Virus record (IMG/VR): IMGVR_UViG_2713896902_000001
DNA from: a virus
Lineage: Duplodnaviria; Heunggongvirae; Uroviricota; Caudoviricetes
Length of the DNA stretch: 31,164 bases
Reading direction: 5' to 3' (one strand)
Shown here: positions 6,137 to 27,985 of the stretch, one piece after another
Layout of the letters: each line of letters opens with the position of its first letter
How positions within the stretch are numbered: position 1 is the stretch's first letter
The notes under the pieces: generated by a model
What the model was told of the DNA's origin: nothing
What the model saw: only the letters and a program-made list of their open reading frames with translations
Databases searched by the model: none
Made by a program: the position numbers and the translations under genes

Positions 6137-6154
6137 TAAAAGGAATAATAATAA

Positions 6155-7183: not shown

Positions 7184-7196
7184 TATTTAACGTGTA

Positions 7197-7236: not shown

Positions 7237-7268
7237 TTATTTTTTAAATTTTGAGAGGTGATTAAAAT

Positions 7269-7472: not shown

Positions 7473-7486
7473 TAAGGGGATTTTAA

Positions 7487-9331: not shown

Positions 9332-9352
9332 CATTACAAGGAAATTATTATT

Positions 9353-10066: not shown

Positions 10067-10104
10067 CCGTAAATGCCTCTAAAACGCTCTGTAACGATGT
10101 AATT

Positions 10105-10140
10105 ATAAAAGAGGCTACCAACTATGTTGAATCCTCTTTA
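10105..10140. terminator. hairpin between convergent genes (bidirectional terminator candidate)
   Basis: TAAAAGAGGctaccaactatgttgaatCCTCTTTA between the 9353..10066 gene and the minus-strand integrase. Confidence 0.4.
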
Positions 10141-10146
10141 TTGCGT

Positions 10147-11481: not shown

Positions 11482-11751
11482 AGAAAATGATAATTTTTTC
11501 TATAAGATTCAATCAATTAGTAATGGTCGTAGGTGATGGCATTAACACGAGATTAATCGAGTGTTTTACTCCTATTATCGGCACCATTCAAACATCTCCC
11601 CAAGTCTACTAAAGTCTTTCAAAACCCCTTATAATCCACGTATTAAAGCCCCGTTCGTCTTTTGACGTCTACTAAAGTCCCTCAAAATCTACGGTCAGAT
11701 GGGGGTACTTATGGGGGTATTTGCTGTTCGGTTTAGTGGAGGTACCCCCAA
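11482..11751. promoter_or_regulatory. shared control region between divergent integrase genes with 20-bp direct repeats
   Basis: GTCTACTAAAGTC(T/C)(T/C)TCAAAA twice (about 11605 and 11660); GGGGGTACttatgggggtatttgctgttcggtttagtggagGTACCCCC inverted repeat just before the int start; partly duplicated near 30794-31035. Confidence 0.4.
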
Positions 11752-12966: not shown

Positions 12967-13100
12967 CTGTATGAATAGACAGTGTCAAGCAATGGTAGTA
13001 GACTTATGTAGACGAACAAAGAATAGGCTATGTCTAGGCTGATCCCCGAAAACCCGTACACCCCTACGGGCTGGCATAGCCGTCAGAATTAGGGGCGCGG
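12967..13100. other. nested hairpin structures downstream of int (terminator or structured RNA/att-like element)
   Basis: GCTTGACtgtatgaatagacagtGTCAAGC, then GGCTATG...CCCGTAcacccctACGGG...CATAGCC nested stems. Confidence 0.3.
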
Positions 13101-13108
13101 GGTGGCGT

Positions 13109-13990
13109 ATGGTGAGAGCCAAAAAACAAGATTTAGCATGGTTTGATATTAATAATTATGAATTTTTAAATGATTTAACCTTGCCGGACTTGATTCAAGA
13201 ATTAGAGTGGCGTGATTTTTTATTGCGTCATGCAAAAGATGACACTGCTATATTCAAAGAAGAGTACGATATAAAATATGAAAGAATTTTTTCGGGCGAT
13301 CCTAACCTAACCATTCTCAATGAAGAAGAGGAAGAGGTTGAAGAATTTATTCGCAAAGTAAATGATGAAGCCCCATCATTAAGAAATGAGTACGATGATC
13401 TTCCCTCATTATCTTCAGCTATGGGGGTTAGTCCAGTAACATTTTCAGAGCTGGCTATGTACTCTTTCTCATCGATAGATCAAGGCTTTTTTAAAAGAGA
13501 CGAAGAGGATTGCTACCTCAAGGCAAACGCTATGCTTGCGAGTGTTACTGGAAACCTAAGTAATTGTTCCCCTAACATCATACTCGTTTCTATAGATTTA
13601 GATGACGCCACTGATGACGAAATTATTACCAGCCTGACTCACCTTCTACCTCTATGGCGAAAAGAGTTAAAAGTACCAGAGAGAGAGCATGTCGCTCAGA
13701 AAAGGATTGGATTAAAGACCCTCCAGAAGTTGATATCTAATAGAGTGATACCTATTGTTGATCTGCTGATTTGGGGTGAGAAGTCAGGTAAGGAAGTGAG
13801 CAATCCGATGATTTCTGCCTTGGTTTTTAGTGATGATCCGAAAGATACGCAGGCTATTAAGGAATCAATAAAGCCTTTTGCACTTGAATCCATAAGCGAG
13901 AGATACACCCGCTTGCTTCAGCTTTATGTAAACAAAGACAGAGAAATGAGCTTGATAAAAATATCTGATTTAATGAGTAGAGATTTATAG
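13109..13990 (+). CDS. hypothetical protein (293 aa), AT-rich cargo gene between int and alpA
   Basis: Track ORF; visibly lower GC than flanking int and alpA; acidic runs (NEEEEEVEEF, DLDDATDDEI); no recognisable catalytic motif by eye. Confidence 0.7.
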   Translation: MVRAKKQDLAWFDINNYEFLNDLTLPDLIQELEWRDFLLRHAKDDTAIFKEEYDIKYERIFSGDPNLTILNEEEEEVEEFIRKVNDEAPSLRNEYDDLPSLSSAMGVSPVTFSELAMYSFSSIDQGFFKRDEEDCYLKANAMLASVTGNLSNCSPNIILVSIDLDDATDDEIITSLTHLLPLWRKELKVPEREHVAQKRIGLKTLQKLISNRVIPIVDLLIWGEKSGKEVSNPMISALVFSDDPKDTQAIKESIKPFALESISERYTRLLQLYVNKDREMSLIKISDLMSRDL

Positions 13991-14034
13991 CAAGCAAAAT
14001 CCTACGTAAACGTTTTAAGTAAATTTCGCGATTT

Positions 14035-14069
14035 CCGCTTTGAATACGCTACTGTGTATTTCAAAGCGG
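14035..14069. promoter_or_regulatory. perfect 10-bp inverted repeat CCGCTTTGAA / TTCAAAGCGG (operator or terminator) between the cargo gene and alpA
   Basis: Read directly; not followed by a clear T-run, so operator favoured over terminator. Confidence 0.3.
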
Positions 14070-14187
14070 ATAATCTTCTCAAAAAAATATTTTATTTTTA
14101 TCCGCTATCACCCACTCACCTGTTTGTTTAATCTCCTTTCTGTCTACTGATGTCCATTAAAGAAGATGACAGAATATAGGAGTAAAC

Positions 14188-14385
14188 ATGTCTCAATCAT
14201 TTATTCGTCTTTCTGAGGTTCAACGCCGTACTGGTTACAGCAAAGCGTGGATTTATCGGCTCATCAAAGAACAGCGATTCCCTCAATCTGTAAAGATTGG
14301 AAGCCGATCAATTGCGTTTATTGAAAGTGAAATTGAAGAATGGATTAATCAGCGCATCGCTGAGTCGCGTGGCGAGGTAGCGTAA
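14188..14385 (+). CDS. alpA: AlpA/Vis-family phage transcriptional regulator (65 aa)
   Basis: HTH pattern LSEVQRRTGYSKAWIYRLIKEQRFP...IESEIEEWINQR typical of AlpA-family proteins; position after int as in P4-like and PICI-like islands. Confidence 0.85.
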   Translation: MSQSFIRLSEVQRRTGYSKAWIYRLIKEQRFPQSVKIGSRSIAFIESEIEEWINQRIAESRGEVA

Positions 14386-14816
14386 TGAATAAGAAAAACC
14401 GCCCATTACAGGCGGCTAATTCAGATATTCGCGTATCTGATGTTACGCCCCTTACAAAATCCCTTCAAGCACCAAAGCGCACACCGAAAAAGCATCGTGC
14501 CAGAGTCTATATGCTGCGTACTGGTATAGAGGGATGGACAGAAAATGACATTCTTCGCTACTGCCGTCTGTCTTCTGGTCGTAACTATGCAACAGAGTTA
14601 GAACGCCAGCTTGGAATCACTCTGGAGCGTATCGACGAAAAGAATCCTGATGGTATCGGAACACACCTTCGCTACCGTTTCTCCTGCCGTGGTGATGTTC
14701 TGAAAGTGATCACTCATGTTAACCATCTTGCGAACATAAATGATCACAACGGACTTTCTCAGCAGGAAATTGCCGACATTCTGAAACTCTACCCGGACGC
14801 GTTTAACGCCGCCTAA
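14385..14816 (+). CDS. hypothetical protein (143 aa)
   Basis: Track ORF; ATG overlaps the alpA stop (translational coupling). Confidence 0.6.
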   Translation: MNKKNRPLQAANSDIRVSDVTPLTKSLQAPKRTPKKHRARVYMLRTGIEGWTENDILRYCRLSSGRNYATELERQLGITLERIDEKNPDGIGTHLRYRFSCRGDVLKVITHVNHLANINDHNGLSQQEIADILKLYPDAFNAA

Positions 14817-14828
14817 CGGAGACTGAAA

Positions 14829-15662
14829 ATGAACATCGAAAAAAGCAGATTAATTTCTGAGGCCGCCCCTCATCTGAACGCCTCTCTGGGCACAATTAAC
14901 GGTAATGAATTTGCCGCAATTGTCCCGGTTATTCCTGGTCATATCGGTGGGCGTGAAACCAATATTGTTAGCGCAAAAGCGTTACACAAAGCGTTGGGCG
15001 TGGGAAAAGACTTCTCTACATGGATCACTGATCGCATCTCTGAATATGACTTCACCATTGGGCACGATTACTCAGTCCATAAAACAATTTCCCCAAATTT
15101 GGGGAAAAGCCCGAATGGCGCGGCTTACAGCAAGATTAAGCAGTCTGGCAGACCCGGCAAAGACTATCTGTTAAGTGTCGGAATGGCGAAAGAACTGGCA
15201 ATGATCGAACGCAATGATCAGGGTCGCGCTATCCGTCGTTATTTCATCCAGTGCGAGGAAGAATTACAGCGTAGCGTGCCTGAAATCGCCGCCCGCTATC
15301 GTCGCCAGCTAAAAGCCCGTATCAGTGCCGCAAACAACTTTAAGCCAATGTGCGATGCGCTGAATATGGCCCGTGCCGAGCAGGGGAAAACGACGCAGCA
15401 ACACCACTACACAAACGAGAGCAATATGATTTCTCGTATCGTTCTTGGAGGGCTAACTGCTAAGCAGTGGGCGCGGATAAATGGCTATTCTGGCGAACCT
15501 CGCGACCATATGAACGCAGAACAGCTTGAGCACCTCTCATATCTCGAAAGCACCAATATCACGTTAATTGATATGGGCATGGAATATGAGCAACGTAAAG
15601 GAGAACTCACCCGCCTGTCGCAACGCTGGCTCGCCAAGCGTCTGGAGGCGGTCCATGTTTAA
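14829..15662 (+). CDS. hypothetical protein (277 aa), possibly phage regulatory/antirepressor-like; family not assigned
   Basis: Track ORF; GGAG RBS; placed in the regulatory block between alpA and the primase. Confidence 0.65.
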   Translation: MNIEKSRLISEAAPHLNASLGTINGNEFAAIVPVIPGHIGGRETNIVSAKALHKALGVGKDFSTWITDRISEYDFTIGHDYSVHKTISPNLGKSPNGAAYSKIKQSGRPGKDYLLSVGMAKELAMIERNDQGRAIRRYFIQCEEELQRSVPEIAARYRRQLKARISAANNFKPMCDALNMARAEQGKTTQQHHYTNESNMISRIVLGGLTAKQWARINGYSGEPRDHMNAEQLEHLSYLESTNITLIDMGMEYEQRKGELTRLSQRWLAKRLEAVHV

Positions 15663-15837
15663 GCCGACAGGAACACCACAACCTCAAAAACGCTACAAAG
15701 ATGCCCACGGAGCACTCGTTACTGTCGAAAGCGTGTCTCACAACCGAGTGACGTTTTATCGCGACGGGTATCAATCGCCATGCGTACAACCGCTGGCGCG
15801 CTTCATGAAGGAGTTCGCGGAGGTTAACAAATGCTAA
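15655..15837 (+). CDS. hypothetical small protein (60 aa)
   Basis: ATG 15655 with GGAGG RBS overlapping the upstream stop; internal start of track ORF 15568..15837. Confidence 0.4.
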   Translation: MFKPTGTPQPQKRYKDAHGALVTVESVSHNRVTFYRDGYQSPCVQPLARFMKEFAEVNKC

Positions 15838-16898
15838 CCGTCCAGAAGAAGATATTTTCACTGGCTGGTATGTCACCAAAATCCAGCAATATGACAGCAA
15901 AGTCTGGCATTAATACAGCAGATACAAGCAAAGTTTATCATTTTCTGGTGGTAGGAGCGGATGCCTTAACTATGTCAGAAATTACGGTCGATGGTGTTAG
16001 CGTTGAGAAGGTCAGCGGCTGCGCCAGAGAATTTCTGGTCGTAGATGGCTTTCTCTGCTCGCGTAGTGACTCCACAAAAACCTTCGTCCATACGCGCGAC
16101 GTTAACGAAATGAGCGCGATGTATTGTGCATCTGGTGCTTCCAATAGTGAGTTTTCGGAGTCCATAAAAAAGAGCTTGCCGTTATGCGGCAACACGGTTT
16201 ATGGTTATAAGGCACCTCATAAAACGGGTGCCGGGATTGGCGTCCTGAAAATTCTGAAGGCGACATATGACGCGCCGAGCGTCTTTTTTTATGTCGTAGG
16301 TCTGACTCACCCATTTTTTGGGCGTTGGTGTATAATCCAGCGCCTTTGTCAATCAATGGTGGCTCAGGCGGGGGCTTCTTCGGAAGCGCCGGTATCCTTC
16401 AGAGCCGGTTACGCCAACCCTGTCTGGGCTACCACCAGCGAAATTGGCGTTTCCGGTGGTAGCGTAACCTGCTATCTGAAGGAGGCTGCCACATGCTGGC
16501 TACTACCCCTACCCAAAAACCGCAATTTATCTGGATTATCGCCGCAGTTCGCCGCGATTGCCCGACAATTACCGCCAAAATTCATCATATTGCTGCCGAG
16601 TCTGAACGCGATGCTCGCCGTTCTCTGGTGCGCGATCACGTCTGCTTTTTTGCTGGTCGTATCCGCATGGAGGTGGCACATGATTAAAACCTACGATGTG
16701 CATATGGATCCCCTCGAACGCACAAGCCAGATCATCACACTGACAGAAGTGATTAATGACATTCTGGTGAGCAACTCTCCCTCACGAGACGAAAAACTGA
16801 AGGCGTTACTCGCGATATTGGATCTCGCCGTTCGTGACGTTCATTTCCTGCTGGAAGGTGGCGAAATGCCAGGAAAAACGGGGGCAACCAATGAATAA
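15831..16898 (+). CDS. long ORF of uncertain authenticity (355 aa); the 3' part probably corresponds to separate small genes
   Basis: No stop in this frame, but a well-supported 64-aa gene (16493..16687) is embedded in another frame and a strong internal RBS/ATG sits at 16680; composition looks atypical (Cys/Trp-rich). Confidence 0.3.
16493..16687 (+). CDS. hypothetical small protein (64 aa)
   Basis: Track ORF; AAGGAGG RBS 8 nt upstream of ATG. Confidence 0.4.
   Translation: MLATTPTQKPQFIWIIAAVRRDCPTITAKIHHIAAESERDARRSLVRDHVCFFAGRIRMEVAHD
16680..16898 (+). CDS. hypothetical small protein (72 aa)
   Basis: GGAGG RBS then ATG 16680 overlapping the stop of 16493..16687; same frame as the long ORF. 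Confidence 0.4.
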   Translation: MIKTYDVHMDPLERTSQIITLTEVINDILVSNSPSRDEKLKALLAILDLAVRDVHFLLEGGEMPGKTGATNE

Positions 16899-17085
16899 CT
16901 CAATTAATGCCCCTCGACTTACGTCCGCACTTCAATTAATCGAGCAAGCAGCGGCTGTCCTGGTTGCTGTCAGTCTTTCGGCTGAAGAAATGGACGCTGC
17001 TGATGTCGTGGATGCGATTAAAGCGTGCTCATCTTTGGTTAACGATGCTCGTGCAGAGCTGGTAATTCTTGGGGGTGAAAAATGA
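16891..17085 (+). CDS. hypothetical small protein (64 aa)
   Basis: Internal ATG of track ORF 16834..17085; ATGAATAA overlap with the upstream stop. Confidence 0.5.
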   Translation: MNNSINAPRLTSALQLIEQAAAVLVAVSLSAEEMDAADVVDAIKACSSLVNDARAELVILGGEK

Positions 17086-17345
17086 ATATCAACTTAATTT
17101 ATCGTCATCCGTGTGAGCTGGAAATTGAATCATTGCTGAGCCGTGAAGAGCCATATCCAGACACATTCACTCTTGCAGATCGCACGACTGAACGGCTTAC
17201 CAGAGCGCGCACAGGTCTGGTTCATGTGATGAATGAGATTCTTCCATCGGTGGGAGGGGAACAGGCGACAGTAATCACTAGCTGGCTACAAAAAGTTACC
17301 TCTCTGATAGATATCAGTTTAATCGATGCGGAGAGTGCGAAATGA
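17082..17345 (+). CDS. hypothetical small protein (87 aa)
   Basis: Track ORF; ATGA start/stop overlap. Confidence 0.55.
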   Translation: MNINLIYRHPCELEIESLLSREEPYPDTFTLADRTTERLTRARTGLVHVMNEILPSVGGEQATVITSWLQKVTSLIDISLIDAESAK

Positions 17346-17563
17346 CCAACATCCAGCTCATTGAAGCACAATGTCGCATCGAACAGGTTCAGACTGTTTT
17401 AGGGTTCTGGCTTGAAGGGGCCAGCCCCAGCAACAGAGACAAGTTAATGATTGGCGCGGTTATGTCACTGCTCAATGGCGTACCAGAAGCTATTCAGGAA
17501 GCAGACGAATTGTTGGGCAAATATGAGTTACAGAATCATTCAGGCGAGGCGAAACATGAATAA
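17342..17563 (+). CDS. hypothetical small protein (73 aa)
   Basis: Track ORF; ATGA overlap. Confidence 0.55.
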   Translation: MTNIQLIEAQCRIEQVQTVLGFWLEGASPSNRDKLMIGAVMSLLNGVPEAIQEADELLGKYELQNHSGEAKHE

Positions 17564-17780
17564 TTTCTTAACTTTCCATGCAGAAGCAACGCCTGACGGC
17601 GTAAACATCATGTATCGCAGCAACGATGGCATGACAGAACGCGTTGAGGCCGTCTCATATATTGATGCCGTAAATCGTCTGGATGCCGGGGATTATGACG
17701 ATAAACCAGATGAAGGTATGTCAATACATCTCGCTATTGCCGATGGCGGCAACCAGGGATATTTCGATTACACATCATAG
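17556..17780 (+). CDS. hypothetical small protein (74 aa)
   Basis: Internal ATG of track ORF 17451..17780; ATGAATAA overlap with upstream stop. Confidence 0.5.
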   Translation: MNNFLTFHAEATPDGVNIMYRSNDGMTERVEAVSYIDAVNRLDAGDYDDKPDEGMSIHLAIADGGNQGYFDYTS

Positions 17781-17792
17781 CATAACGTCATT

Positions 17793-18158
17793 ATGTGGAG
17801 ATGGCTGATCGCAACAGTATTCATGCTGGAAATGAGAGAGGAAAACGGCACTGTCAGTATCATTGATGATACTGGCAATCCTTCCGAAGTGGCTGTTTAT
17901 TCCAACGGCATCGTCGCCATACCGCTGTATCCAGTAGCAGAGCGCCTCGCTATGGCAAACAACATTGAGGGCGCGATGATAGAACGTTTTGGCATCGAGT
18001 CTGGCACAGAACGCGCCATCATTTTCTACAGAGCCATGATGGATGTGGAACAAGGAGCACTGACTCCATTTGGTCGTGAAACGCTTGCTGAACTTCACAA
18101 CAGCTTTATAGCTGAACTGAATGAAAACGGCATGCCAGCGGAACCAGTGACGCACTGA
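17793..18158 (+). CDS. hypothetical protein (121 aa)
   Basis: Track ORF; start uncertain (alternative ATG about 17826). Confidence 0.5.
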   Translation: MWRWLIATVFMLEMREENGTVSIIDDTGNPSEVAVYSNGIVAIPLYPVAERLAMANNIEGAMIERFGIESGTERAIIFYRAMMDVEQGALTPFGRETLAELHNSFIAELNENGMPAEPVTH

Positions 18159-18168
18159 GGATGGAACC

Positions 18169-18510
18169 ATGATTACTAAAAATTTCCGACTGAATGCGCT
18201 GGCAAATAAGTATGCGTCGGCACTGTATAACCACATTACCTCCACCAGCGGCGGGGACTATTTCATGGTTGATGCGGACGGCGAGGCCGTACGTGTGGAA
18301 ATCGTCAATGGAGTAAAAGGCGTTCGCAGCCTGATCGATAGCTACACACTGGCAGCCATGAAAGTGTTCTACCCGCAGTGGGAAACCGTGGGGATCGAGC
18401 TTCTTGAGCGTTGCGTCACTAAGGACGGATTGACTGACGTCGGGCGTGAGATATGGCAAAGCATGGTTAATGACATGGGCGCAACTGTAGCGGGAGGTTC
18501 TCATGCGTGA
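18169..18510 (+). CDS. hypothetical protein (113 aa)
   Basis: Track ORF; GAGGATGG RBS. Confidence 0.6.
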   Translation: MITKNFRLNALANKYASALYNHITSTSGGDYFMVDADGEAVRVEIVNGVKGVRSLIDSYTLAAMKVFYPQWETVGIELLERCVTKDGLTDVGREIWQSMVNDMGATVAGGSHA

Positions 18511-18874
18511 AAATGCAGAAATGGCGCTTAGCTCCGCAATCGGAGAGCTGGTGGCAAAGATTGCTGGTGCTGTGTGGATTCATAACCTTCATTCTACTGG
18601 TGAAGAGAAAATGGCAATTCAGACGCCAGAGGGACGCACCATTACTACATCTCTGAAGCCGTCAGATGTTTGTGATCTGATTTGCGCATTCATGTACCCA
18701 GCAATGAGGACTGTCCACGGCGATAAGTGGAAACTTGCGACAACCGCTGAATTTGATATGTGGCTAAACAATGATGGCATGCTGACTGATTACGGAATAA
18801 CCAAGTGGCAGATGCTGGTTAGCCATATCGCAAACGCTATAGACCACGTGGGGTACGGTGATGCGAAACATTGA
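18503..18874 (+). CDS. hypothetical protein (123 aa)
   Basis: Track ORF; overlaps neighbours at both ends. Confidence 0.6.
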   Translation: MRENAEMALSSAIGELVAKIAGAVWIHNLHSTGEEKMAIQTPEGRTITTSLKPSDVCDLICAFMYPAMRTVHGDKWKLATTAEFDMWLNNDGMLTDYGITKWQMLVSHIANAIDHVGYGDAKH

Positions 18875-21617
18875 TCTTATCCGTCAGGTTATCAGTGCGT
18901 CTGAAAACAACTGGCCTCATGTGCTGGGCTGCCTGAACATAAATGTCCCTGACTCTCCGCGCCGTCATGCTCCCTGCCCTGCATGTGGGGGCAAAGATCG
19001 ATTCCGGTTCGATGACAACGGGCGCGGTAGCTTCATCTGTAATCAGTGCGGCGCTGGTGATGGGCTGGATTTAATTAAACGCGTAAATAACTGCGACACA
19101 ACAGAGGCGGCGCTTCTTGCCGCTGATGTTCTGGGTATTGATTACCGGACAACGGAAACACCAGAAGCCACCAGCCAGAAACGGGAACAACTGGAAACCG
19201 AGCGCCAGCGACGCGAACAGGAGCGCCTGAAAAGGGCAGAGAAGGACGAACAACAAAGACGGGATACGTTTTCCCGTCAGTTTGATGACATGCGCAGAAA
19301 GGCTGTAAACGGCAAATCTGATTATCTGGTTGCGAAAGGGGTAGGTGATTTTACATTCCCCGTGTTGCCTGATGGATCTCTGTTGCTGGCGCTGGTGGAT
19401 AAATCCGGCGCAGTCACAGCAGCACAGACTATTACCTCACATGGTGAAAAAAGACTCCTGACAGGTTCAGCAAAGCGGGGGGCATATCACGCCATAAACG
19501 CACCAGAAACAACACAGAGCATCTTAATCGCAGAAGGGCTGGCAACGGCATTATCTGCCCATTTAATTCGTCCAGAGGCGCTGACAGTGGCGGCGATTGA
19601 TGCCGGGAACCTGTTATATGTCGCCCAGGTACTGCGGGATAAATTTCCTTCAGCACAAATCATCATTGCTGCGGATAACGACCACAGCGAAGGAAGACAA
19701 AACACGGGGAGAATAGCAGCAGAAAAAGCAGCTTTATCTGTTTCTGGATGGGTGGCATTACCCCCGACAGGTCACAAAGCAGACTGGAATGATTACCACC
19801 AAAAACACGGCATTAAATGCGCCACAGAAGCGTTCAATAAGTCAATGTACCAACCACAGGGTAATGGCGTGAAACAGGAGCCACAGACCATTGAGGGAAG
19901 CGATTTTAAGGTTATGGATACCGACCCACTGAAACCAAGAATAGAAAGCCGCGAGGATGGTATTTATTGGGTATCTCCGAGAGCTGACAGCCAGAGTGGA
20001 GAAATCATCAATAACGAAAGCTGGTTATGTTCTCCGTTAAGCGTTATCGGTACTGGCAGAGACGATAAAGACCAGTATCTCATTCTTCGCTGGCTGTCGT
20101 TTGGTTCTGAAACGCCGACAACCGCTGCCATTCCACTGGCTGATATTGGTGAACGTGAAGGATGGCGCACACTTAAAGCTGGTGGGGTAAATGTCACGAC
20201 CAAAAGCAGCCTCAGAGCAATACTGGCAGACTGGCTACAACGCAGTGGCTCTCGTGAATTGTGGCGTGTTGCTCATGCCACTGGCTGGCAATGCGGAGCG
20301 TACATCATGCCTGATGGGGAAATCATCGGAACACCTGAAAATCCTGTGCTGTTCAGCGGGAGAAGCTCAGCCGCAGCCGGATATACCGTCTCAGGGAGCG
20401 CGAAAAGCTGGCGTGATAACGTGGCGCGTCTGGCCTTTGGTAACTATTCAATGATGACCGGGATCGGCGCAGCACTGGCAGCGCCATTGATTGGGCTGGT
20501 GGGCGCTGACGGGTTCGGCATTCATTTCTATGAGCAGTCGAGCGCAGGTAAGACCACCACGGCAAACGTGGCGAGCAGCTTATACGGCAACCCTGATTTA
20601 CTGCGGCTGACGTGGTATGGAACCGCGCTGGGGCTGGCAAATGAGGCCGCCGCCCACAATGACGGACTAATGCCGCTTGATGAAGTTGGTCAGGGCGCTG
20701 ATCCTGTCAGCGTTTCACAGTCTGCCTATGCGTTATTTAACGGTGTAGGGAAACTGCAAGGCGCTAAAGATGGTGGAAACCGGGATCTAAAACGCTGGCG
20801 TACAGTGGCAATCAGCACCGGAGAAATGGATTTAGAAACATTTATCGCTACTTCCGGGCGAAAAACCAAAGCCGGGCAACTGGTGCGACTGCTGAATATT
20901 CCGTTGAGTAAAGCAGTACGCTTTCACGATTACCAGAACGGAAAACAGCACGCAGACGCACTGAAAGACGCTTACCAGCATCACCACGGCGCAGCCGGGC
21001 GTGAGTGGATTAAATGGCTGGCAGACCACCAGCAACAGGCAATTAAAACTGTTCGTGACTGCGAAAGCAGATGGAGAAGTCTGATCCCATCCGATTATGG
21101 TGAGCAGGTTCACCGTGTAGCCGCGCGATTTGCCATTCTGGAGGCCGCATTGCTGTTAGGCGAGGTTGTAACAGGCTGGGATGCTCAGACATGCCGTGAT
21201 GCGATACAGCACAGCTATAACGCATGGTTGCGCGAGTTCGGCACAGGTAACAAAGAACATCAGCAGATTATTGAACAAACGGAGGCATTTCTTAATGCCT
21301 ATGGGCTTAGCCGTTTTGCACCATTTCCATACAGCCCGGCAGATTTGCCCATCAAAGATTTAGCCGGATACCGTCAGCGTGGAGAACATGACGAAAGCCC
21401 AATGATTTTCTACACATTCCCGGCCACATTTGAAAAGGAGATCGCATGTGGTTTCAACGCAAAACAGTTTGCTGAAGTGTTGAAAAAAGCCGGGATGCTA
21501 ACCCCACCAAACAGTGGTCGTGGATACCAAAGAAAATCACCACGTATTCAGGGACGACAAATAAACGTTTATGTACTCAATTACCAGCCAGGAGATTACA
21601 ACTCATCTGAAGAATGA
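18861..21617 (+). CDS. primase-helicase, P4 alpha-like (zinc-ribbon + TOPRIM primase, C-terminal NTPase)
   Basis: Zinc ribbon CPACGGKDRFRFDD...CNQCG; TOPRIM acidic motif IIAADNDHSEGRQ; Walker A-like SSAGKTT and Walker B-like LMPLDEVG; followed directly by the iteron cluster. Confidence 0.9.
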   Translation: MRNIDLIRQVISASENNWPHVLGCLNINVPDSPRRHAPCPACGGKDRFRFDDNGRGSFICNQCGAGDGLDLIKRVNNCDTTEAALLAADVLGIDYRTTETPEATSQKREQLETERQRREQERLKRAEKDEQQRRDTFSRQFDDMRRKAVNGKSDYLVAKGVGDFTFPVLPDGSLLLALVDKSGAVTAAQTITSHGEKRLLTGSAKRGAYHAINAPETTQSILIAEGLATALSAHLIRPEALTVAAIDAGNLLYVAQVLRDKFPSAQIIIAADNDHSEGRQNTGRIAAEKAALSVSGWVALPPTGHKADWNDYHQKHGIKCATEAFNKSMYQPQGNGVKQEPQTIEGSDFKVMDTDPLKPRIESREDGIYWVSPRADSQSGEIINNESWLCSPLSVIGTGRDDKDQYLILRWLSFGSETPTTAAIPLADIGEREGWRTLKAGGVNVTTKSSLRAILADWLQRSGSRELWRVAHATGWQCGAYIMPDGEIIGTPENPVLFSGRSSAAAGYTVSGSAKSWRDNVARLAFGNYSMMTGIGAALAAPLIGLVGADGFGIHFYEQSSAGKTTTANVASSLYGNPDLLRLTWYGTALGLANEAAAHNDGLMPLDEVGQGADPVSVSQSAYALFNGVGKLQGAKDGGNRDLKRWRTVAISTGEMDLETFIATSGRKTKAGQLVRLLNIPLSKAVRFHDYQNGKQHADALKDAYQHHHGAAGREWIKWLADHQQQAIKTVRDCESRWRSLIPSDYGEQVHRVAARFAILEAALLLGEVVTGWDAQTCRDAIQHSYNAWLREFGTGNKEHQQIIEQTEAFLNAYGLSRFAPFPYSPADLPIKDLAGYRQRGEHDESPMIFYTFPATFEKEIACGFNAKQFAEVLKKAGMLTPPNSGRGYQRKSPRIQGRQINVYVLNYQPGDYNSSEE

Positions 21618-21641
21618 GCTACTTCATGTGCGTAGAAAAGG

Positions 21642-21753
21642 TGTTGGTTCAGTTGGTTCAGTTGGTTCAATTTGTAAAGAGCGTTGTTTTATAAGGATTT
21701 TATTCTTTTTGTTGAACCAACACTGAACCAACAACACGGCATTTTGAACCAAC
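21642..21753. repeat. ori-like iteron cluster: 3 tandem GTTGGTTCA, AT-rich spacer, 3 inverted copies (TGAACCAAC)
   Basis: ggtgttggttcagttggttcagttggttcaatttgtaaagagcgttgttttataaggattttattctttttgttgaaccaacactgaaccaacaacacggcattttgaaccaacac immediately 3' of the primase gene. Confidence 0.6.
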
Positions 21754-21850
21754 ACAATGTGACTGAATTGATGTGCACAACACCTGGCTGGCATTAGAGA
21801 GTGTTTTACGAAATCTGAACACCACATCAACTGGTTTCAGTGGGAGATTG

Positions 21851-22309
21851 ATGATGAAGATAATCGCAAAGGCTTTTCATCATGTATTTGGCAAAGTATC
21901 CGATTTGCCATCTGTAATACCGATGAACAACAGAAGGGAGACGCTGCTTGATGTGGTTGTGTTCCCATACATAGACCTTTCTGAACCAATGAAAGCAACT
22001 CTTTTCAGAAAGTATCTTGGCGACTTTAAACGCCGTTTTACAGGCGTTAACGGGATGGTTGATATCTGCGCCATCAGAGATATTGTTGAACTTGCAGGGA
22101 TTAATTTGTGGGGAGAAGCGGCAGCAGCATACAAATGGCTTGAACGCCTGCACTGTGTTTCATTCAGTGACATGAGTGCTGATATCGCTTTAATGGTTCC
22201 TCACAAAATCAATATGGTCTTTGCTGGTGGCAATTACACTTATCCATGGAACAAGGAACAAAGAGAGAACAGGAAAGCTCACGCCATGAAGAGTAATGCG
22301 ACTCCATAA
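21851..22309 (+). CDS. hypothetical protein (152 aa)
   Basis: Track ORF 21773..22309; start placed at ATG 21851 with GGGAGA RBS, since the track start lies inside the iterons. Confidence 0.5.
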   Translation: MMKIIAKAFHHVFGKVSDLPSVIPMNNRRETLLDVVVFPYIDLSEPMKATLFRKYLGDFKRRFTGVNGMVDICAIRDIVELAGINLWGEAAAAYKWLERLHCVSFSDMSADIALMVPHKINMVFAGGNYTYPWNKEQRENRKAHAMKSNATP

Positions 22310-22363
22310 ATATAGTTTTTAGAGTCCATAAAAAACTGTCAAAACTTGACATACAGAACGATG

Positions 22364-22395
22364 CCACCAGCTACTGAGCGGTGGCATTTTCTTGT
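22364..22395 (+). terminator. Rho-independent terminator candidate
   Basis: GCCACCagctactgagcGGTGGC followed by attttcttg; a TTGACA -35-like element sits just upstream at about 22346. Confidence 0.45.
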
Positions 22396-22488
22396 GCTAT
22401 TCGTTTCACATTTTGCAATGAACATGATGAATGTTGCGTTTTATGAAACTATAATAACTGTTGTTTTATACAGTTCTAAGGGGGCGTT

Positions 22489-22650
22489 ATGGCTATTTCA
22501 GTAAAGCCGGTATTGATAAGTGAGAAGCAAATGGAAGCGATAAAGAAAATTCAGGAAGAGCAGCGTAAAAAATCAGGAATTGGAGTAGCGCCAACTCTGC
22601 ATGAAATTGCACGAGGGTTAATAGATAAGGCGCTGGCAGGCTGTATGTGA
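22489..22650 (+). CDS. hypothetical small protein (53 aa), possibly RHH-like
   Basis: AAGGGGG RBS then ATG 22489; MAISVKPVLISEKQMEAIKKIQEEQRKKSGIGVAPTLHEIARGLIDKALAGCM; below track cutoff. Confidence 0.35.
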   Translation: MAISVKPVLISEKQMEAIKKIQEEQRKKSGIGVAPTLHEIARGLIDKALAGCM

Positions 22651-22666
22651 AAATGGATGGCACCGC

Positions 22667-23128
22667 ATGGAACTAAAATTTATTGATAACCCGGTGCGAT
22701 TACAGGCCTTTCTTAACGAGCCTGCCAATACCGAAAATATTGTTGAGCCGGGGCACACGTACTACATCAAGCCTGATGCGGTATATCTCGGCATCTACGA
22801 AGGATTGGTGCTGGCTGGCGTTCATGAAGTGCGTAACTTCTGGCATAGCATTGTTGAATGTCATGCGGTGTACGACCCCGGATTCCGTGGTGAATATGCA
22901 CTGCAAGGGCATCGATTATTCTGCAAATGGCTTCTCGAAAACTCACCATTCCTTAACAGCATCACTATGGTTCCTGACACCACGAAATACGGACGGTCAA
23001 TTATCCGTTTGCTTGGCGCTACCCGTGTTGGTCACCTGGCCGATGCATATATCAGATGTGGTAAACCCGTCGGCGTAACGCTTTATCAGTTAACTCGGCA
23101 ACAATATAAGGAACTCAGCGAATGTTAA
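22667..23128 (+). CDS. hypothetical protein (153 aa)
   Basis: Track ORF; stop overlaps the next gene start. Confidence 0.6.
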   Translation: MELKFIDNPVRLQAFLNEPANTENIVEPGHTYYIKPDAVYLGIYEGLVLAGVHEVRNFWHSIVECHAVYDPGFRGEYALQGHRLFCKWLLENSPFLNSITMVPDTTKYGRSIIRLLGATRVGHLADAYIRCGKPVGVTLYQLTRQQYKELSEC

Positions 23129-23799
23129 TTACCCATATAGCTCATAAACATCTCAATCGTGCCGTATACGAAAAAGGCGGTGATGGTGGTGCCTCTAAAG
23201 CTCAGGCGAAGGCCCAGCAGCAGGCAATTGATTTGCAGCGCGAGCAGTGGAATACGGTGATGAATAATCTCAAGCCGTATGCAGAAGTCGGATTGCCTGC
23301 TTTACAACAACTACAAGGGCTGATGACTCTGGAAGGGCAGAATAAAGCCGCGAATGATTTCTTTGGTTCTGGTTTATATAAAACACAGGCAGATCAGGCC
23401 CGTTATCAGAACCTTGTCTCAGCAGAAGCTACCGGGGGGCTTGGCTCAACAGCTACCAGTAACCAGTTATCTTCCATTGCGCCCATGCTTTATAACAATT
23501 GGCTTAGTGGGCAAATGCAAAATTATGGAAACCTGCTAAATGTCGGGATGAATGCGGCATCAGGGCAGGCAACGGCTGGGCAAAACTACGCCAATAATAC
23601 CGGACAACTCTTGCAGGGGCTTGGCGCTATTCGTGCAGGTCAGGCGCAGCAGCCATCCAGTCTTGCGCGTGGTATTGGTGGGGCAGCATCAGGCGCTTTA
23701 GCGGGTGCGCAACTTGGTTCCGTTGTTCCTGGAATAGGTACTGCGGCCGGCGCTATTGGTGGTGGGATTATTGGTCTTGTTGGGGGGCTTGGATTCTAA
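23122..23799 (+). CDS. Gly/Ala/Gln-rich protein with C-terminal glycine-zipper hydrophobic tail (225 aa); ejection/internal-virion-protein-like
   Basis: C-terminus GIGGAASGALAGAQLGSVVPGIGTAAGAIGGGIIGLVGGLGF; first of three translationally coupled genes. Confidence 0.6.
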   Translation: MLITHIAHKHLNRAVYEKGGDGGASKAQAKAQQQAIDLQREQWNTVMNNLKPYAEVGLPALQQLQGLMTLEGQNKAANDFFGSGLYKTQADQARYQNLVSAEATGGLGSTATSNQLSSIAPMLYNNWLSGQMQNYGNLLNVGMNAASGQATAGQNYANNTGQLLQGLGAIRAGQAQQPSSLARGIGGAASGALAGAQLGSVVPGIGTAAGAIGGGIIGLVGGLGF

Positions 23800-25118
23800 T
23801 GGCGACATGGCAACTTGGCGGGCTGCCTAGCATGGCACCGCAAAATGATAATGCTCCTCGTTCTTCCGTTCCTCAGCCCGTGCAGTATCAGCAGCAGCCA
23901 AACGTAGGTTTAATGGCGCTACAGGGGCTAAGAGGCGTTGCTGAGATTAATCAGCAGGCGCAAATTTCCCAGCAGCTAAAAGAATATCAGGCACGGTTGG
24001 GTAGTGCGGTAGCTAATAATGATCGTGTTAGCGTGCAGAAGTTAATGGCCCAGTATCCCCAGTTTATGGCTGATTCCCAAAAACAGATGGGATTCATTGA
24101 TGCTGAGCAAAATCGACAGACCGCTGACGCTGCCATGAATCTGCGTCTTGCGTCACAAACTGGAGATCCACTGACCATGCAGAAGGCCATTCAGCAGGCA
24201 AATCCAGTATTACAGCGATTTGGTCTTCCTGCTGAAGAGGTTTATCAGTCTTGGCAGAATGACCCACAGGAATTCAACAGAATCACTGACCTCATCCACC
24301 TCCATGCTGATCCAAATAGTTACTTTAGTGTTCAAGAGAAGCAGCAAGGGCAGAGCATTGCACAGCAGAACGCAGATACATCTGCATATAATGCTCAGGT
24401 TAATGCGGAACAGGGTAATCGGCGTCTCGATATGGAGCAGTTCAAAGTCCTATCCGATAACCAACTACGCACGAGAGAAATGGTTCTGAAAGCACGACTT
24501 GGACGTGCTCAAAATGACATCGAGAGAGACAAGCTCAATGCTGAACTGAGCAAGGTACAGCAGGCGAAAGTGGAGAAGATGAACGATAAAATTAATACTG
24601 TTGCAGGTAACATCGACTCCTTGAACTCTGCGCTTGAAGTGGGTCATGAACTGGCGGGAATTGTAGGGAAACATCCTTCGGCCGTTACCCGCTCGCAGAA
24701 CTATAACCCCCTGACGCTGGGGTTTGGATTCCTTCCTGATGTAGCAGAAGACACACGAAGCCTACGCGCCAAAGCTGATGAATACAACCTAAAGGTTATT
24801 CTGCCTAGCCTCAAAGGGACTTTTGGCTCTAACCCAACCGAAGGGGAAAGGGCTGCCCTTATGCAATCTCAAAATGGCATTAAGTCAGCAACCAGCAATG
24901 AGGCATTTTTACGAGAGTTGAATAAAGCGCAGGACGTAATTATTCGAATGCAGAAACGACAGATTGCCGGGCTCGGTATTCCTGTAACCAAATCTAAGGA
25001 CGAAGAAACTGATACCAAAATGCTGTTGCAGGATCCTTCACTGGTTAAGGATTATGTGACCGCACATGGCTATCTGCCGGAAAGTTACTATCAGGCAAAA
25101 CTTAAGGGATGGCAATGA
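23799..25118 (+). CDS. Gln-rich coiled-coil protein (439 aa); ejection/internal-virion-protein-like
   Basis: Track ORF; start overlaps the upstream stop; low-complexity Q/A-rich heptad-like segments. Confidence 0.65.
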   Translation: MATWQLGGLPSMAPQNDNAPRSSVPQPVQYQQQPNVGLMALQGLRGVAEINQQAQISQQLKEYQARLGSAVANNDRVSVQKLMAQYPQFMADSQKQMGFIDAEQNRQTADAAMNLRLASQTGDPLTMQKAIQQANPVLQRFGLPAEEVYQSWQNDPQEFNRITDLIHLHADPNSYFSVQEKQQGQSIAQQNADTSAYNAQVNAEQGNRRLDMEQFKVLSDNQLRTREMVLKARLGRAQNDIERDKLNAELSKVQQAKVEKMNDKINTVAGNIDSLNSALEVGHELAGIVGKHPSAVTRSQNYNPLTLGFGFLPDVAEDTRSLRAKADEYNLKVILPSLKGTFGSNPTEGERAALMQSQNGIKSATSNEAFLRELNKAQDVIIRMQKRQIAGLGIPVTKSKDEETDTKMLLQDPSLVKDYVTAHGYLPESYYQAKLKGWQ

Positions 25119-27835
25119 TGGCACAACTGACAGAAAAACAGAAAGCCTATTCCCGTCATCTCGATGAAAAATATGGTTTCCCATCAGGGACGATGGAAAC
25201 ATTAGTTGGCAATGAATCTAGTGGTAACGGAAGTGCCGAGTCACCGAAAGGAGCTAGAGGATTTGCTCAACTGATGCCCTCAGTAATGAGTGATGCTGGT
25301 TATCGTGGAACTGATCCGCGCTCACTGCCATTTGAAAAGCAAATGGATATCGCAGCAAACCATCTCAATAAAGGAATGAAGCGATTTGGTGATATAGGTA
25401 TGGCATTGGCTGGGTATAATTCTGGCTATGCTCGTATTAATGCCGTCAGAAACGGTAAATCTACACTGCCAGATGAAACGGCTAATTACGTAAGTAAATT
25501 TGCAGATGCCGGAATAATCCCTGATGACAGTGAAATCTTGCAGTTTGCACAAACCAGTCAACATCGCAATCTTCAGCAGCCTGACTACTCAGAGCTTGAT
25601 AAAGAAATCTCTCAGGTGGGAGATATTTCTGCATGGGAAGCAAAACGTCAGCAATTTAAGAACATAGAAGCAGGACTACCAACAGCCAGTTCATGGGAGC
25701 AGAAAAGAGCTCAGTTTCTCGCCGATGAAAATGCCGGGGAACCGCAGCAGCAAGTAGCCAAGTCTAACCTTAATCCTGAGATGGAATATCTTTCGCCAGG
25801 ACTGAAAGCTGCGCCAGAGCAGATGGCCAGAGGGATTGCTAATATACCGTTTGATGTAATGGACGCAGGCGTGGGGGTAGTCAATGCGGCGCAATCAGCC
25901 GGAGCATGGGCAGCTCAGAAGCTTGGTGTGGGTGATGGCACATACACGCCCATATCACCTGTCTTTCGCCCAGTAGACCAACCTACAGATCCATACGCGC
26001 AGGCTGGTGAGCAGCTAGCACCTTACCTTATTACAGGATTAGGTGCAGGAAAGGCAGCTACCGCAGCTTCTTCAGTTGCCAACGCTCCACGTGCTGAACG
26101 TGCGGCCACAAAGGTGGCTAGTATGTTGGCAGAAAACCTGCCAGGTACATTGGTGAACGCCCAAAAGAACGGGCAGATCAGCCCAGAAGACCTAGCAAAA
26201 GAGACAGGTATTGGCCTAGCAGGATCGCTAGGAGCACGCGCTTTAATAAAGAGCGGACAGACAGCCAGTGACGTAATGCGAGATGTATTGCGGAGTAATA
26301 CAAATCAATCAGGCCATGTGTTAGGGGCAGCAAATACTCTGGAAACCGCCAATGATGTATCGAAAGCAGCGCGTTCTGCCGTAGGCCGAGAGCATATCGC
26401 ATCGCAGGCATCAAACGTCAGAGATGATGTCGCTAAGGCGGCGAAAATCACTGGTATTAATATCAACACCCTGACGCCTGGAATGCGCTCAGGTAGTCGT
26501 GGAATTGCCCAAGCAGAAGGTGTTCTGGCATCAACTCCTGGGAATGTTCAGGATGCTCACCTTACGGCCTTCAATGAAATATCCTCAAAGTTGAATAAGC
26601 AGTTGTCTGATTTCGGTGCTGAGTCTGGAAGCGCATCAGAAAAAAGCGCAGCAATTAAAGAGCGCATCATCGCGAGCCTCAGTGATATGAAAACAGCAGA
26701 GAATATGGCATGGGCAGAACTGCGAAGCACGATGCCACGCGAAAGGATGAAAATGAGTAATGGGATGGCTGTCGTCCAAGCAGAAAAAGCAGCCAATGTT
26801 CCACTCAGCCCGGAGATGAAACAGTTTCAGGCTGCCAACAACCAAGGTGGCGGCATAACCTTCGACGGGATGAAGGCATGGCGTGCTAAGTTTGCTGATG
26901 CTGAACAAGCAAACACCCGGGCAGGTAAGGCCAATGCCGCCCGGATTGCCGGAGAAATGCGCAGAGCTATCACTGATGACATGCGCATCATGGCTGAAAA
27001 AGGAAACTTCCTCACAGAATGGCAGAAAGCTAACGATCTCTCTAAAAGTTACATTATCGCCAAACAAAATGCCGAATCTGTTTTTGGTCGAGATCTCGCA
27101 TCAGACGCTATGGTAAGAAAAGGTGTCGATACGCTTAAGGCATCCGCAAACACTGGAACGGGAGCTTTTCACCGCCTTATCTCCGCGCTGCCGGAAGCAG
27201 AACGCCAACCAGCAATAGCATCTATTCTTCAGCATGCTGTGGCGCAGGGAGAGAAGGGAGGAATCGGTGAAGAGTCTGGTATCCAGTATTTTGCCAAGCT
27301 CATGACCCAGCAGAATGTAAACGCCATCAGTCGTCATGCGCCAGATCTCGGTAGAATGATGAAAGAGTTCGGTGTACTCGCTAAAGCCAGCACCAGACCG
27401 CAGCGATACGTAGAACGCACGGGAAGAACAACTGAGGCTCTCAAAACGCTCGATTCAGGCCTTCCAAAGATCGTCGGTGTGATTATGAACGGAGTTCAAC
27501 AGTCAGGTGCGATCGCTGGAGGCTTTGGCGGTGGTGTAATTGGTTCGATTAGTGGTTTGGTTGCTGGTGGCGCACTGAGAAATACTGTGGCTAAGATTGG
27601 GGCGACAAGAAGTGGTCGATATGCGATAGAGAAAGCCGTTCAGGAAGCTACAAAAGCAGTGCGCGCAGGGGCATCACCAGCAGCGATCGCCGCAGCAGAG
27701 AAACGATTTTCGGCCAATAAAATTGCCATGAAAGCAATTCGTGATGCCGTTGGGGCTGAAGAATTCGTGAAACTGACAAGGGCCGGGATTGTAGCTACCC
27801 TCAGTGGCATGAAAGATGTTAGCGAATGGGAATAG
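25109..27835 (+). CDS. large protein with N-terminal lytic transglycosylase (SLT) domain and Ala/Gly-rich C-terminal region (908 aa); ejection/internal-virion-protein-like or tape-measure-like
   Basis: SLT-type motifs near the N-terminus (NESSGNGSAESPKGARGFAQLMPS ... ALAGYNSGYARIN); glycine-rich hydrophobic segment GVQQSGAIAGGFGGGVIGSISGLVAGGAL near the C-terminus. Confidence 0.8.
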   Translation: MAMMAQLTEKQKAYSRHLDEKYGFPSGTMETLVGNESSGNGSAESPKGARGFAQLMPSVMSDAGYRGTDPRSLPFEKQMDIAANHLNKGMKRFGDIGMALAGYNSGYARINAVRNGKSTLPDETANYVSKFADAGIIPDDSEILQFAQTSQHRNLQQPDYSELDKEISQVGDISAWEAKRQQFKNIEAGLPTASSWEQKRAQFLADENAGEPQQQVAKSNLNPEMEYLSPGLKAAPEQMARGIANIPFDVMDAGVGVVNAAQSAGAWAAQKLGVGDGTYTPISPVFRPVDQPTDPYAQAGEQLAPYLITGLGAGKAATAASSVANAPRAERAATKVASMLAENLPGTLVNAQKNGQISPEDLAKETGIGLAGSLGARALIKSGQTASDVMRDVLRSNTNQSGHVLGAANTLETANDVSKAARSAVGREHIASQASNVRDDVAKAAKITGININTLTPGMRSGSRGIAQAEGVLASTPGNVQDAHLTAFNEISSKLNKQLSDFGAESGSASEKSAAIKERIIASLSDMKTAENMAWAELRSTMPRERMKMSNGMAVVQAEKAANVPLSPEMKQFQAANNQGGGITFDGMKAWRAKFADAEQANTRAGKANAARIAGEMRRAITDDMRIMAEKGNFLTEWQKANDLSKSYIIAKQNAESVFGRDLASDAMVRKGVDTLKASANTGTGAFHRLISALPEAERQPAIASILQHAVAQGEKGGIGEESGIQYFAKLMTQQNVNAISRHAPDLGRMMKEFGVLAKASTRPQRYVERTGRTTEALKTLDSGLPKIVGVIMNGVQQSGAIAGGFGGGVIGSISGLVAGGALRNTVAKIGATRSGRYAIEKAVQEATKAVRAGASPAAIAAAEKRFSANKIAMKAIRDAVGAEEFVKLTRAGIVATLSGMKDVSEWE

Positions 27836-27985
27836 ACGCTCTAACTAACAAAACCATAATAGCCAAGGACGGCATACTGATATTGAGCCAACTATCAAAA
27901 TTCCATATCACATTACGAGCCTGTGGCTTACATTCGCTTACAGTGATGATAATTTATAACCACGCAATTCTTAGGTGAGATTATC

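Follow-up and report, generated by a model that had tools for sequence, protein, structure and literature searches.

A P22-type ejection gene module in a phage satellite of the PICI type

Why should a phage satellite without capsid or tail genes carry genes for the proteins by which P22-type phages eject their DNA into the cell? The question is raised by the IMG/VR virus record IMGVR_UViG_2713896902_000001 (Caudoviricetes), a stretch of DNA of 31,164 nucleotides that was analysed at its full length and is called the window below. An earlier, sequence-only reading of the window had drawn attention to three translationally coupled genes resembling the ejection modules of podoviruses and had placed them in a P4-like satellite island. 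Here we describe that the block has four genes, whose predicted products are homologs of gp14, gp7, gp20 and gp16 of phage P22, that it lies in an element of the phage-inducible chromosomal island (PICI) type, and that the complete module is subject to strong purifying selection. We propose that it could serve the satellite in entering the next cell.

Identity of the four block proteins

The open reading frame (ORF) listing of the window has ORFs for 225, 439 and 908 amino acids (aa) exactly where the sequence-only reading had put them, all on the plus strand (Table 1), and in near-identical Escherichia coli loci RefSeq calls the same genes, gives them the names of ejection proteins and starts the largest one two codons later (906 aa). 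The overlaps between the genes had been seen correctly, their number had not: the gp14 gene immediately upstream overlaps the gp7 gene by 7 nucleotides (ATGTTAA), and the coupled block therefore consists of four genes rather than three. The gp7 and gp20 genes overlap by 1 nucleotide (TAATG), the gp20 and gp16 genes by 4 (ATGA) when the RefSeq start of gp16 is used. The gene order 14-7-20-16 with a single direction of transcription is that of P22, as found by comparison with the annotations of P22, the P22-like prophage Kapi1 and Louie; in the P22 record the four genes are followed by sieA on the opposite strand.

The gp14 homolog matches Pfam DUF2824 (E 2e-60) and phrog_651 (E 6e-66). The gp7 homolog matches Pfam PF25688 (P22_gp7) with 246 bits against a cutoff of 28 (E 5e-73) and is 56% identical to P22 gp7; at its end lies a hydrophobic tail rich in Gly and Ala, with seven GxxxG motifs, the glycine-rich C-terminus that had been noticed before. 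Island copies of gp7 from different hosts are 83-100% identical to one another and only 50-63% identical to any phage gp7, whereas the gp7 proteins of Escherichia, Salmonella, Yersinia and Erwinia phages share 68-96% identity. The island gp7 proteins are thus a satellite-specific clade of their own; gp14 has no such split between islands and phages.

The gp20 homolog, of which 11.6% of the residues are Gln, in line with the earlier description as Gln-rich, matches Pfam PF16928 (Inj_translocase) in aa 34-196 (79.5 bits against a cutoff of 29.7, E 4e-22) as well as phrog_917 and phrog_2534 (E 1e-42 to 6e-44), and is 28% identical to P22 gp20 over the N-terminal 200 aa. Approximately 190 aa at the N-terminus are conserved; behind them the sequence is allele-specific.

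The 908-aa protein matches PHROG 770 ('DNA transfer protein') over aa 189-864 (E 8e-121) and is 48-52% identical to gp16 of CUS-3, epsilon34, HK620 and Louie (51% to Louie and CUS-3 over aa 177-903), while with gp16 of P22 itself just a stretch of 76 aa can be aligned. At its N-terminus, as the sequence-only reading had it, the protein has an SLT domain (Pfam PF01464, aa 17-119, 48 bits against a cutoff of 21.3, E 1e-12) in which the family-1 motifs E36-S, GFAQLM(51) and GYNSG(102) are present, and it is predicted from these to carry a family-1 lytic transglycosylase domain. For an 84%-identical ortholog the precomputed Pfam annotation gives both SLT and PF26808 (Phage_P22_gp16). Phages Dewey and Huey have an SLT-gp16 fusion, too (47% identity over aa 21-903), and so has a P22-like prophage of Serratia; to judge from these relatives the fusion is not peculiar to the island and occurs in real P22-like phages. 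A search of PDB sequences with the 908-aa protein gave no match, and NCBIfam has no family for any of the four block proteins or for the lipoprotein encoded behind them.

A spread of identities from 56% for gp7 to a 76-aa alignment for gp16 is normal for the ejection proteins (E proteins), which are highly mosaic (PMC10461980). The profile searches place the trio gp7, gp20 and gp16, with scores well outside what chance would give, in the P22 ejection families and not among type IV secretion system (T4SS) or tape-measure proteins, which is more than the resemblance originally claimed: judged by homology and gene order, the block is a quartet gp14-gp7-gp20-gp16 of true P22 homologs rather than of look-alikes. 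Two other identities were considered for the SLT protein and rejected, that of a tape-measure protein since the 700 aa following the SLT domain are gp16 and the island has no tail genes, and that of a VirB1-like transglycosylase of a T4SS since the protein is a gp16 outside the SLT domain, is encoded between gp20 and a lipoprotein, and lies in an island that has no T4SS genes.

The island and its surroundings

The island comprises positions 11570-30888 (19.3 kb) and is flanked by two exact copies of the att core, against 0.08 copies expected in the window. It has the PICI order integrase-AlpA-primase in an att-flanked element of approximately 10-20 kb (Table 1). Between the att sites there are also a gene for a DUF6387 protein, listed after the integrase gene, and several small ORFs, listed between Ash and the primase; genes for capsid, portal, terminase, tail or lysis proteins are absent. 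The rule that PICIs have no virion-structural genes does not hold here, as the element carries homologs of the virion proteins gp7, gp20 and gp16, and it is this feature that sets it apart. The domain architecture of the primase (Zn-ribbon, TOPRIM and DUF927) and of the integrase (Arm-binding) fits the P4 type; P4 itself is not among the phage matches listed for the primase, and no ORF of the island that was scanned had a Pfam or PHROG match to psu, sid, delta or epsilon. By its gene content the element is a PICI-type satellite, essentially EcCIMP1, and not P4-like in the strict sense. The cluster of iterons found directly behind the stop codon of the primase gene is a candidate origin of replication.

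Table 1. Features of the ejection gene block, of the rest of the island and of the neighbouring element (positions in the window)
Feature	Position	Strand	Remarks
gp14 homolog	22667-23128	+	153 aa; DUF2824, 'head morphogenesis'; first of the four-gene block
gp7 homolog	23122-23799	+	225 aa; ejection protein family, satellite-specific clade
gp20 homolog	23799-25118	+	439 aa; ejection protein family
gp16 homolog with added N-terminal SLT domain	25109-27835	+	908 aa; RefSeq start 25115
Left att core TCCTATTATC	11570-11579	+	3' end of tRNA-Thr, continues GGCACCA; core identical to the EcCIMP1 report (PMC11773190)
Tyrosine integrase	11752-12966	+	Pfam Phage_int_M, Arm-DNA-bind_3, Phage_integrase; P4-type architecture with Arm-DNA-binding N-terminal domain
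AlpA-family regulator	14188-14385	+	Pfam Phage_AlpA, E 9e-20
AntA/AntB-family antirepressor	14829-15662	+	Pfam AntA, E 1e-21
Ash-family protein	15831-16898	+	Pfam Phage_ASH, E 5e-34; RefSeq 'ash family protein'
Primase-helicase	18858-21617	+	Pfam Zn-ribbon, TOPRIM, DUF927; phrog_1139 'DNA primase', E 4e-178
Iteron cluster, candidate origin	21637-21755		GTTGGTTCA three times direct, then complement TGAACCAAC three times (repeat search)
Outer-membrane lipoprotein	27986-28684	+	lipobox LLAGC
PerC-family regulator	30249-30536	+	Pfam PerC, E 3e-33
Right att core TCCTATTATC	30879-30888	+	second exact copy in the window
Neighbour element (1-11569): resolvase	609-1148	-	
Neighbour element: replication-initiator-like protein	3484-4065		
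Neighbour element: capsid-E-like protein	6155-7183		
Neighbour element: tape-measure-like protein	7487-9331		phrog_16051, E 2e-53
Neighbour element: Dit-like/phrog_817 protein	9353-10066		
Neighbour element: integrase	10147-11481	-	

EcCIMP1 is the PICI of E. coli MP1 and was found to excise and circularise only when the P22-like prophage Kapi1 is present (PMC11773190; Pick, Stadel & Raivio, ISME J 2025). It shares with the island of the window the att core, the tRNA-Thr site and the gene order from integrase to PerC; gp14, gp7, gp20, gp16-SLT and lipoprotein are 96-100% identical (gp16-SLT 99.7%), and the integrase shares 98-100% identity with its counterparts in the islands of MP1 and UPEC132. 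Unlike EcCIMP1, the island of the window follows another thrW element in a tandem array, of which it is the second member, and with its shorter PerC end it has 19.3 kb as compared to 19,963 bp. The authors described the genes downstream of the primase as 'DNA transfer'-like, guessed at a role in packaging and stated that the island lacks structural genes (PMC11773190); the complete 14-7-20-16 module, its allele types and its distribution were not recognised there.

If the guess at packaging were correct, the proteins would redirect the packaging of the helper to island DNA. The position downstream of the primase is indeed the one in which other PICIs carry packaging or capsid-remodelling genes (PMC11773190), and the role of P22 gp14 is poorly defined. 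We nevertheless regard this explanation as very unlikely, because P22 particles made by mutants in genes 7, 16 or 20 are filled with DNA and unable to inject it (PMC10461980, PMC8402733) and because scans with Pfam, PHROG and NCBIfam found no terminase-like domain in the block proteins.

In other E. coli genomes the same island is found alone at tRNA-Thr between proA and pao/yagU. The possibility, raised together with the original observation, that the block belongs to the structural module of an adjacent prophage was rejected, since the island stands alone elsewhere and since the capsid-bearing neighbour has its own integrase and is also found alone. This neighbour (1-11569) is a separate integrative element of approximately 12 kb with a low GC content (36-42%), inserted at the same tRNA-Thr site, where it forms a tandem with the island; in FORC_042 this tRNA carries it alone, at least 80% of its length is covered in 277 E. 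coli genomes, and it may be another satellite-like element. The statement that coat, portal, terminase and tail genes are absent nearby is thus right for the island and wrong for the window, in which 1-11569 has capsid-like and tape-measure-like genes. A tRNA scan of the window found no tRNA; only the 3' end of tRNA-Thr is kept in the left att site, because the other element precedes the island.

Directly behind the right att core (30889-31164) the pattern of the left end of the island is repeated, followed by a degenerate fragment of a P4-type integrase gene, the remnant of a third element; MP1 and UPEC132 have the Vat toxin island at the corresponding place. In the spacer between primase and gp14 the PF9285 island lacks a segment of approximately 450 bp (21812-22265), and in many genomes the match takes in just 84% of this region. 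An ORF for 178 aa (21773-22309) that spans this indel and has no family match is probably not a gene.

Selection, allele types and origin of the module

When the island is compared with the 98.6%-identical copy in PF9285, the ratio of non-synonymous to synonymous polymorphism (pN/pS) is 0.11-0.18 for the four genes, within the span given by 0.06 for the primase and 0.26 for the integrase. Islands of other Enterobacteriaceae (L096-L099), in which the primase is just 72-74% identical and which have extra genes for SSB and ProQ, have kept gp14, gp7, gp20, gp16-SLT and lipoprotein at 82, 73, 82, 84 and 89% identity, respectively. Across this distance the ratio of non-synonymous to synonymous substitution rates (dN/dS) is 0.07-0.09, at a dS of at least 1, which is saturated. 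All ORFs are intact in every copy inspected. A diverged lineage in IMG/VR (L046 and L047), whose primase is 75% identical and which is absent from the E. coli genomes, has likewise kept all four genes. A recurrence of the trio in islands without structural genes, as looked for on the suggestion of the sequence-only reading, was therefore found both in E. coli and in other Enterobacteriaceae.

Among 5426 complete E. coli genomes the junction from primase to gp14-gp7 is present in approximately 234; the count is based on the junction because the 95-99% identity band of island-type gp14-gp7 also takes in prophage remnants of O157:H7. The whole block in the form of the window (type A) is found in 72 of the 5426. 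Together with at least 44 genomes that have the type-C island described below, approximately 5% of the complete E. coli genomes contain an island with an ejection module (E module). A profile scan of genome contigs with the gp20 alignment recovered seven loci, one island and six true prophages, which are too few for a census across genera.

There are three allele types at two integration sites. Type B, found in UPEC132, has the same gp14 and gp7 as type A with another gp20 and with a gp16 of 701 aa that has no similarity to the type-A protein detectable by BLASTP. Type C, found in UMNK88 between yicC and dinD, has a different integrase and a different site and contains, of the four genes, just gp20 and gp16, with a SieA homolog behind them. 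The gp20 alleles A and B are identical for the first 53 aa and then diverge sharply (23799-23960 of the window versus 15133-15290 of L003); a recombination breakpoint lies at this point, within the conserved N-terminal domain.

Mosaic breakpoints of this kind are what one would expect also of an inert relic, a block left behind by recombination between an island and a P22-like prophage and without function. What a genuine remnant looks like can be seen in O157:H7 EDL933 (L102, 1473294-1476110), where beside IntS and tRNA-Arg there is a decayed P22-like remnant in which the tail-needle gene is truncated and gp20 is short, DUF2824 and gp7 are present and gp16 is missing, and which has a gp14 gene that is 96% identical at the DNA level to part of the island gp14 gene. 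The island block, unlike this truncated remnant, has full-length intact ORFs in hundreds of genomes and in other genera, has a low dN/dS even where dS is saturated, and has been swapped for other full-length alleles instead of decaying. We consider a functionless relic hardly credible; the module appears to be a maintained, working part of the satellite, whose alleles are replaced rather than lost.

From where was the block obtained? The lipoprotein encoded behind gp16 gives a clue. It is more conserved than the E proteins (89% identity across genera, dN/dS 0.04) and is predicted to have a PelC/TraT/CsgG-like fold with a very long beta-hairpin. A tblastn search with the lipoprotein against 50,697 phage records gave no match, and its phage context was recovered through look-ups of protein clusters. 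A P22-like prophage of Serratia surfactantfaciens contains gp14, gp7, gp20, an SLT-gp16 that is 44% identical over the whole length, and the lipoprotein (62%), and this block lies between the tail needle gene and the Arc and tailspike genes. The lipoprotein therefore occupies the slot in which P22 has sieA. The presence of the same block plus lipoprotein in a true P22-like prophage argues that the island took the block from such a phage; an ancestral PICI-type satellite would have captured the complete P22-type module together with the lipoprotein gene following it.

In the type-C island the position behind gp16 is taken by a gene for a multi-pass membrane protein of 204 aa (L006:16792-17406, minus strand), in position and orientation like P22 sieA. 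The protein is 30% identical to P22 SieA over 108 aa (E 2e-8), matches phrog_7745 (E 2e-4) and is on these grounds assigned to the SieA family as a predicted exclusion protein.

In IMG/VR, 72 relatives of the island, collected by their primase, could be assessed. Eight of them have the E module, 52 have neither module, and 12 have an SLT protein in the same slot. These 12 sister islands (L054, L055, L056, L059, L061-L064, L067, L071, L083 and L085; primase 60-71% identical) have in most cases a backbone of the int/AntA/Ash type and encode, downstream of the primase, a protein with a C-terminal SLT domain. The two of the 12 that were scanned, L055 (10358-14336) and L059 (11170-13762), have a tape-measure-like SLT protein followed by a baseplate hub protein (phrog_196) and small tail genes; elements of this type have 17-19 kb, with no room for capsid or terminase genes. 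The unrelated neighbour of the island in the window likewise pairs a tape-measure-like gene with a phrog_817 gene.

A proposed role in DNA delivery and comparison with known systems

The genetics of P22 provides the rules by which E proteins supplied in trans could work. The scaffold of P22 recruits the E proteins independently of one another, and for gp7 and gp20 the N-terminal part is sufficient (PMC8402733). Whole foreign sets of E proteins, with a gp16 that is just 22-26% identical, are incorporated into P22, and the particles are infectious; gp16 and gp20 have to be of one origin, whereas gp7 can be exchanged (PMC10461980). Supply in trans is therefore plausible. The island fits these rules well: its gp20 has the conserved approximately 190 aa at the N-terminus, its gp20 and gp16 are far less similar to those of the helper Kapi1 (26% and 24% identity) than its gp14 and gp7 (85% and 58%), and type C has exactly gp20 and gp16, the obligatory matched pair. 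By analogy with P22 we propose, with somewhat more confidence than doubt, that the E proteins of the island are loaded into procapsids built by the helper and form the channel for injection, the SLT domain cutting the cell wall.

The sequence of events would be as follows. When a P22-like helper enters lytic growth, AlpA would switch on the island, which is then excised and replicated, as shown for EcCIMP1; alpA and int are required there, and AlpA acts as the master regulator for excision (PMC11773190). The rightward string of genes including the four overlapping ones would be expressed, and the scaffold of the helper would recruit the satellite gp7, gp20 and gp16 into procapsids via their conserved N-terminal parts. 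After adsorption the E proteins would leave the particle first, the SLT domain would cut the peptidoglycan, and the matched pair gp20/gp16 would build a conduit across the envelope for the packaged DNA. The benefit might be that delivery of the satellite becomes independent of the gp20/gp16 allele of the helper. SieA blocks injection via gp16 and gp20, and one foreign set of E proteins partly escapes (PMC10461980). A private set might, we speculate, evade exclusion aimed at the alleles of the helper, be it by SieA-type proteins or by the island's own lipoprotein; the thought is based on the SieA homolog of type C, on the lipoprotein in the sieA slot and on an immunity phenotype of EcCIMP1.

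This phenotype is that EcCIMP1 raises the superinfection immunity of Kapi1 lysogens to Kapi1, and no known defence system was found there (PMC11773190). With the window, PADLOC returned nothing for the E proteins or the lipoprotein, its sole match being the candidate defence family PDC-S22 (E 1e-10) in the C-terminal half of the AntA antirepressor. One could imagine that the E proteins themselves, produced in small amounts or when superinfection occurs, insert into the carrier's envelope and there jam the conduit by which P22-like phages try to enter, which would account for an immunity without known defence system. There is no precedent for such an effect, the late rightward string behind the primase, to which the E genes belong, is an unlikely place for genes to be expressed in the lysogenic state, and the lipoprotein, or in type C the SieA homolog, is the simpler candidate; we judge jamming by E proteins to be quite improbable and regard the lipoprotein as a candidate entry-exclusion factor and a candidate for the unexplained immunity.

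Could the E proteins instead be directed against the helper? Co-assembled into progeny particles, be they of the helper or of another P22-like phage, gp16 and gp20 that do not match those of the phage would spoil infectivity and protect neighbouring cells. P22 particles provided with a single foreign gene 16 or 20 contain the protein and are not infectious (PMC10461980), PICIs are known to encode blocks of virion assembly such as Tai (PMC11364771), and the gp7 clade of the islands is unusually diverged from all phage gp7 proteins. Compared with Kapi1, gp14 is 85%, gp7 58%, gp20 26% and gp16 24% identical; the low values of gp20 and gp16 also speak for interference. For interference, however, one mismatched protein would be enough as a poison, yet a complete matched set is conserved and type C keeps exactly the matched pair; moreover, induced lysogens release Kapi1 at equal titres with and without EcCIMP1, and the island has no effect on Kapi1 infection of non-lysogens (PMC11773190). 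Interference is thus in our opinion an unlikely function, if less so than jamming of the carrier's envelope.

Loading of the E proteins into helper procapsids has its own difficulties. Only two of 21 strains with EcCIMP1 carry a Kapi1-like prophage, and the natural helper is therefore uncertain; transduction of EcCIMP1 by Kapi1 occurs at a very low rate (about 5e3 per ml), and the module is therefore not sufficient for efficient spread with this phage (PMC11773190). If one cell makes both sets of E proteins, the resulting mixed particles might even be less effective instead of more so. Scans for promoter and terminator consensus sequences found fewer sites than in shuffled sequence, or no more, and so carry no information on the expression of the module. 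These points weigh against the proposal.

The sister islands with SLT proteins hint that satellites of this family could quite generally bring along DNA-delivery proteins of their own. In long-tailed phages the conduit is presumably provided by tape-measure proteins, at which exclusion proteins are likewise directed (PMC10461980). Taken further, there might be a PICI-type family with delivery proteins matched to the kind of helper, namely for podovirus helpers a gp20/gp16 pair of the P22 type, to which gp14 and gp7 may be added, and an SLT tape-measure protein with baseplate hub in the sister islands. Each set would be paired with an entry-exclusion gene, either a SieA homolog or a TraT/PelC-like lipoprotein; the satellite would in this way shut out phages with the common injection proteins, and its own particles would be admitted by virtue of their private set. 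We consider this wider idea as a whole more improbable than probable.

If the island gp7, gp20 and gp16 are indeed loaded, the satellite and not the phage would control part of the infectivity of the transducing particles and probably their sensitivity to exclusion. This would bear on the spread of islands with E module, of which the one described here is in uropathogenic strains a neighbour of the Vat toxin island, on the question why gp16 and gp20 of P22-like phages are so variable, and on the unexplained superinfection immunity conferred by EcCIMP1. This family will be misfiled by programs that find satellites by counting virion genes against them or that rate elements of this kind as defective.

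What the known satellites take from their helpers are capsids, tails and packaging enzymes. We know of no description of a satellite that brings along the proteins which open the recipient cell. The element itself is known as EcCIMP1; literature searches turned up no paper describing DNA-ejection proteins encoded by a satellite, in agreement with the earlier opinion that this is not a standard feature, and the concept of a satellite-encoded injection set is thus not described in the searchable literature. New are the complete, selected and modular ejection set as a hallmark of this satellite family, its apparent acquisition from a P22-like phage along with the gene that occupies the sieA slot, the minimal form gp20 plus gp16, and the divergence of gp20 and gp16 from those of the helper.

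Among the closest known systems is the gp7/gp20/gp16 ejectosome of P22, with which the block shares homology, gene order, tight coupling and an exclusion-type gene after gene 16. It differs from P22 in that the genes are satellite-encoded without capsid and tail genes, in that gp16 is of the CUS-3/epsilon34/Louie type with SLT domain, and in that gp7 forms a clade of its own. In T7 the largest ejection protein, the internal core protein gp16, also begins with a lytic transglycosylase, a feature that was given as absent from P22-like phages in a review of 2022 (PMC8954989); outside the SLT domain T7 gp16 has no detectable homology to the island protein, the rest of which is a P22-type gp16.

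With the classical PICIs of Gram-negative bacteria (such as EcCICFT073), the capsid-forming PICIs and P4 the island has in common the integrase-AlpA-primase backbone, the att flanks, the size and the dependence on a helper; these elements carry genes for redirection of packaging, for remodelling of capsids or for capsids instead of an ejection module. Tai and similar blocks, encoded by satellites or prophages, are a further example of mobile elements acting on the virion proteins of phages (PMC11364771). The Tai proteins are small inhibitors, whereas the island encodes complete, working-looking homologs of virion proteins and leaves the titre of the helper unaffected.

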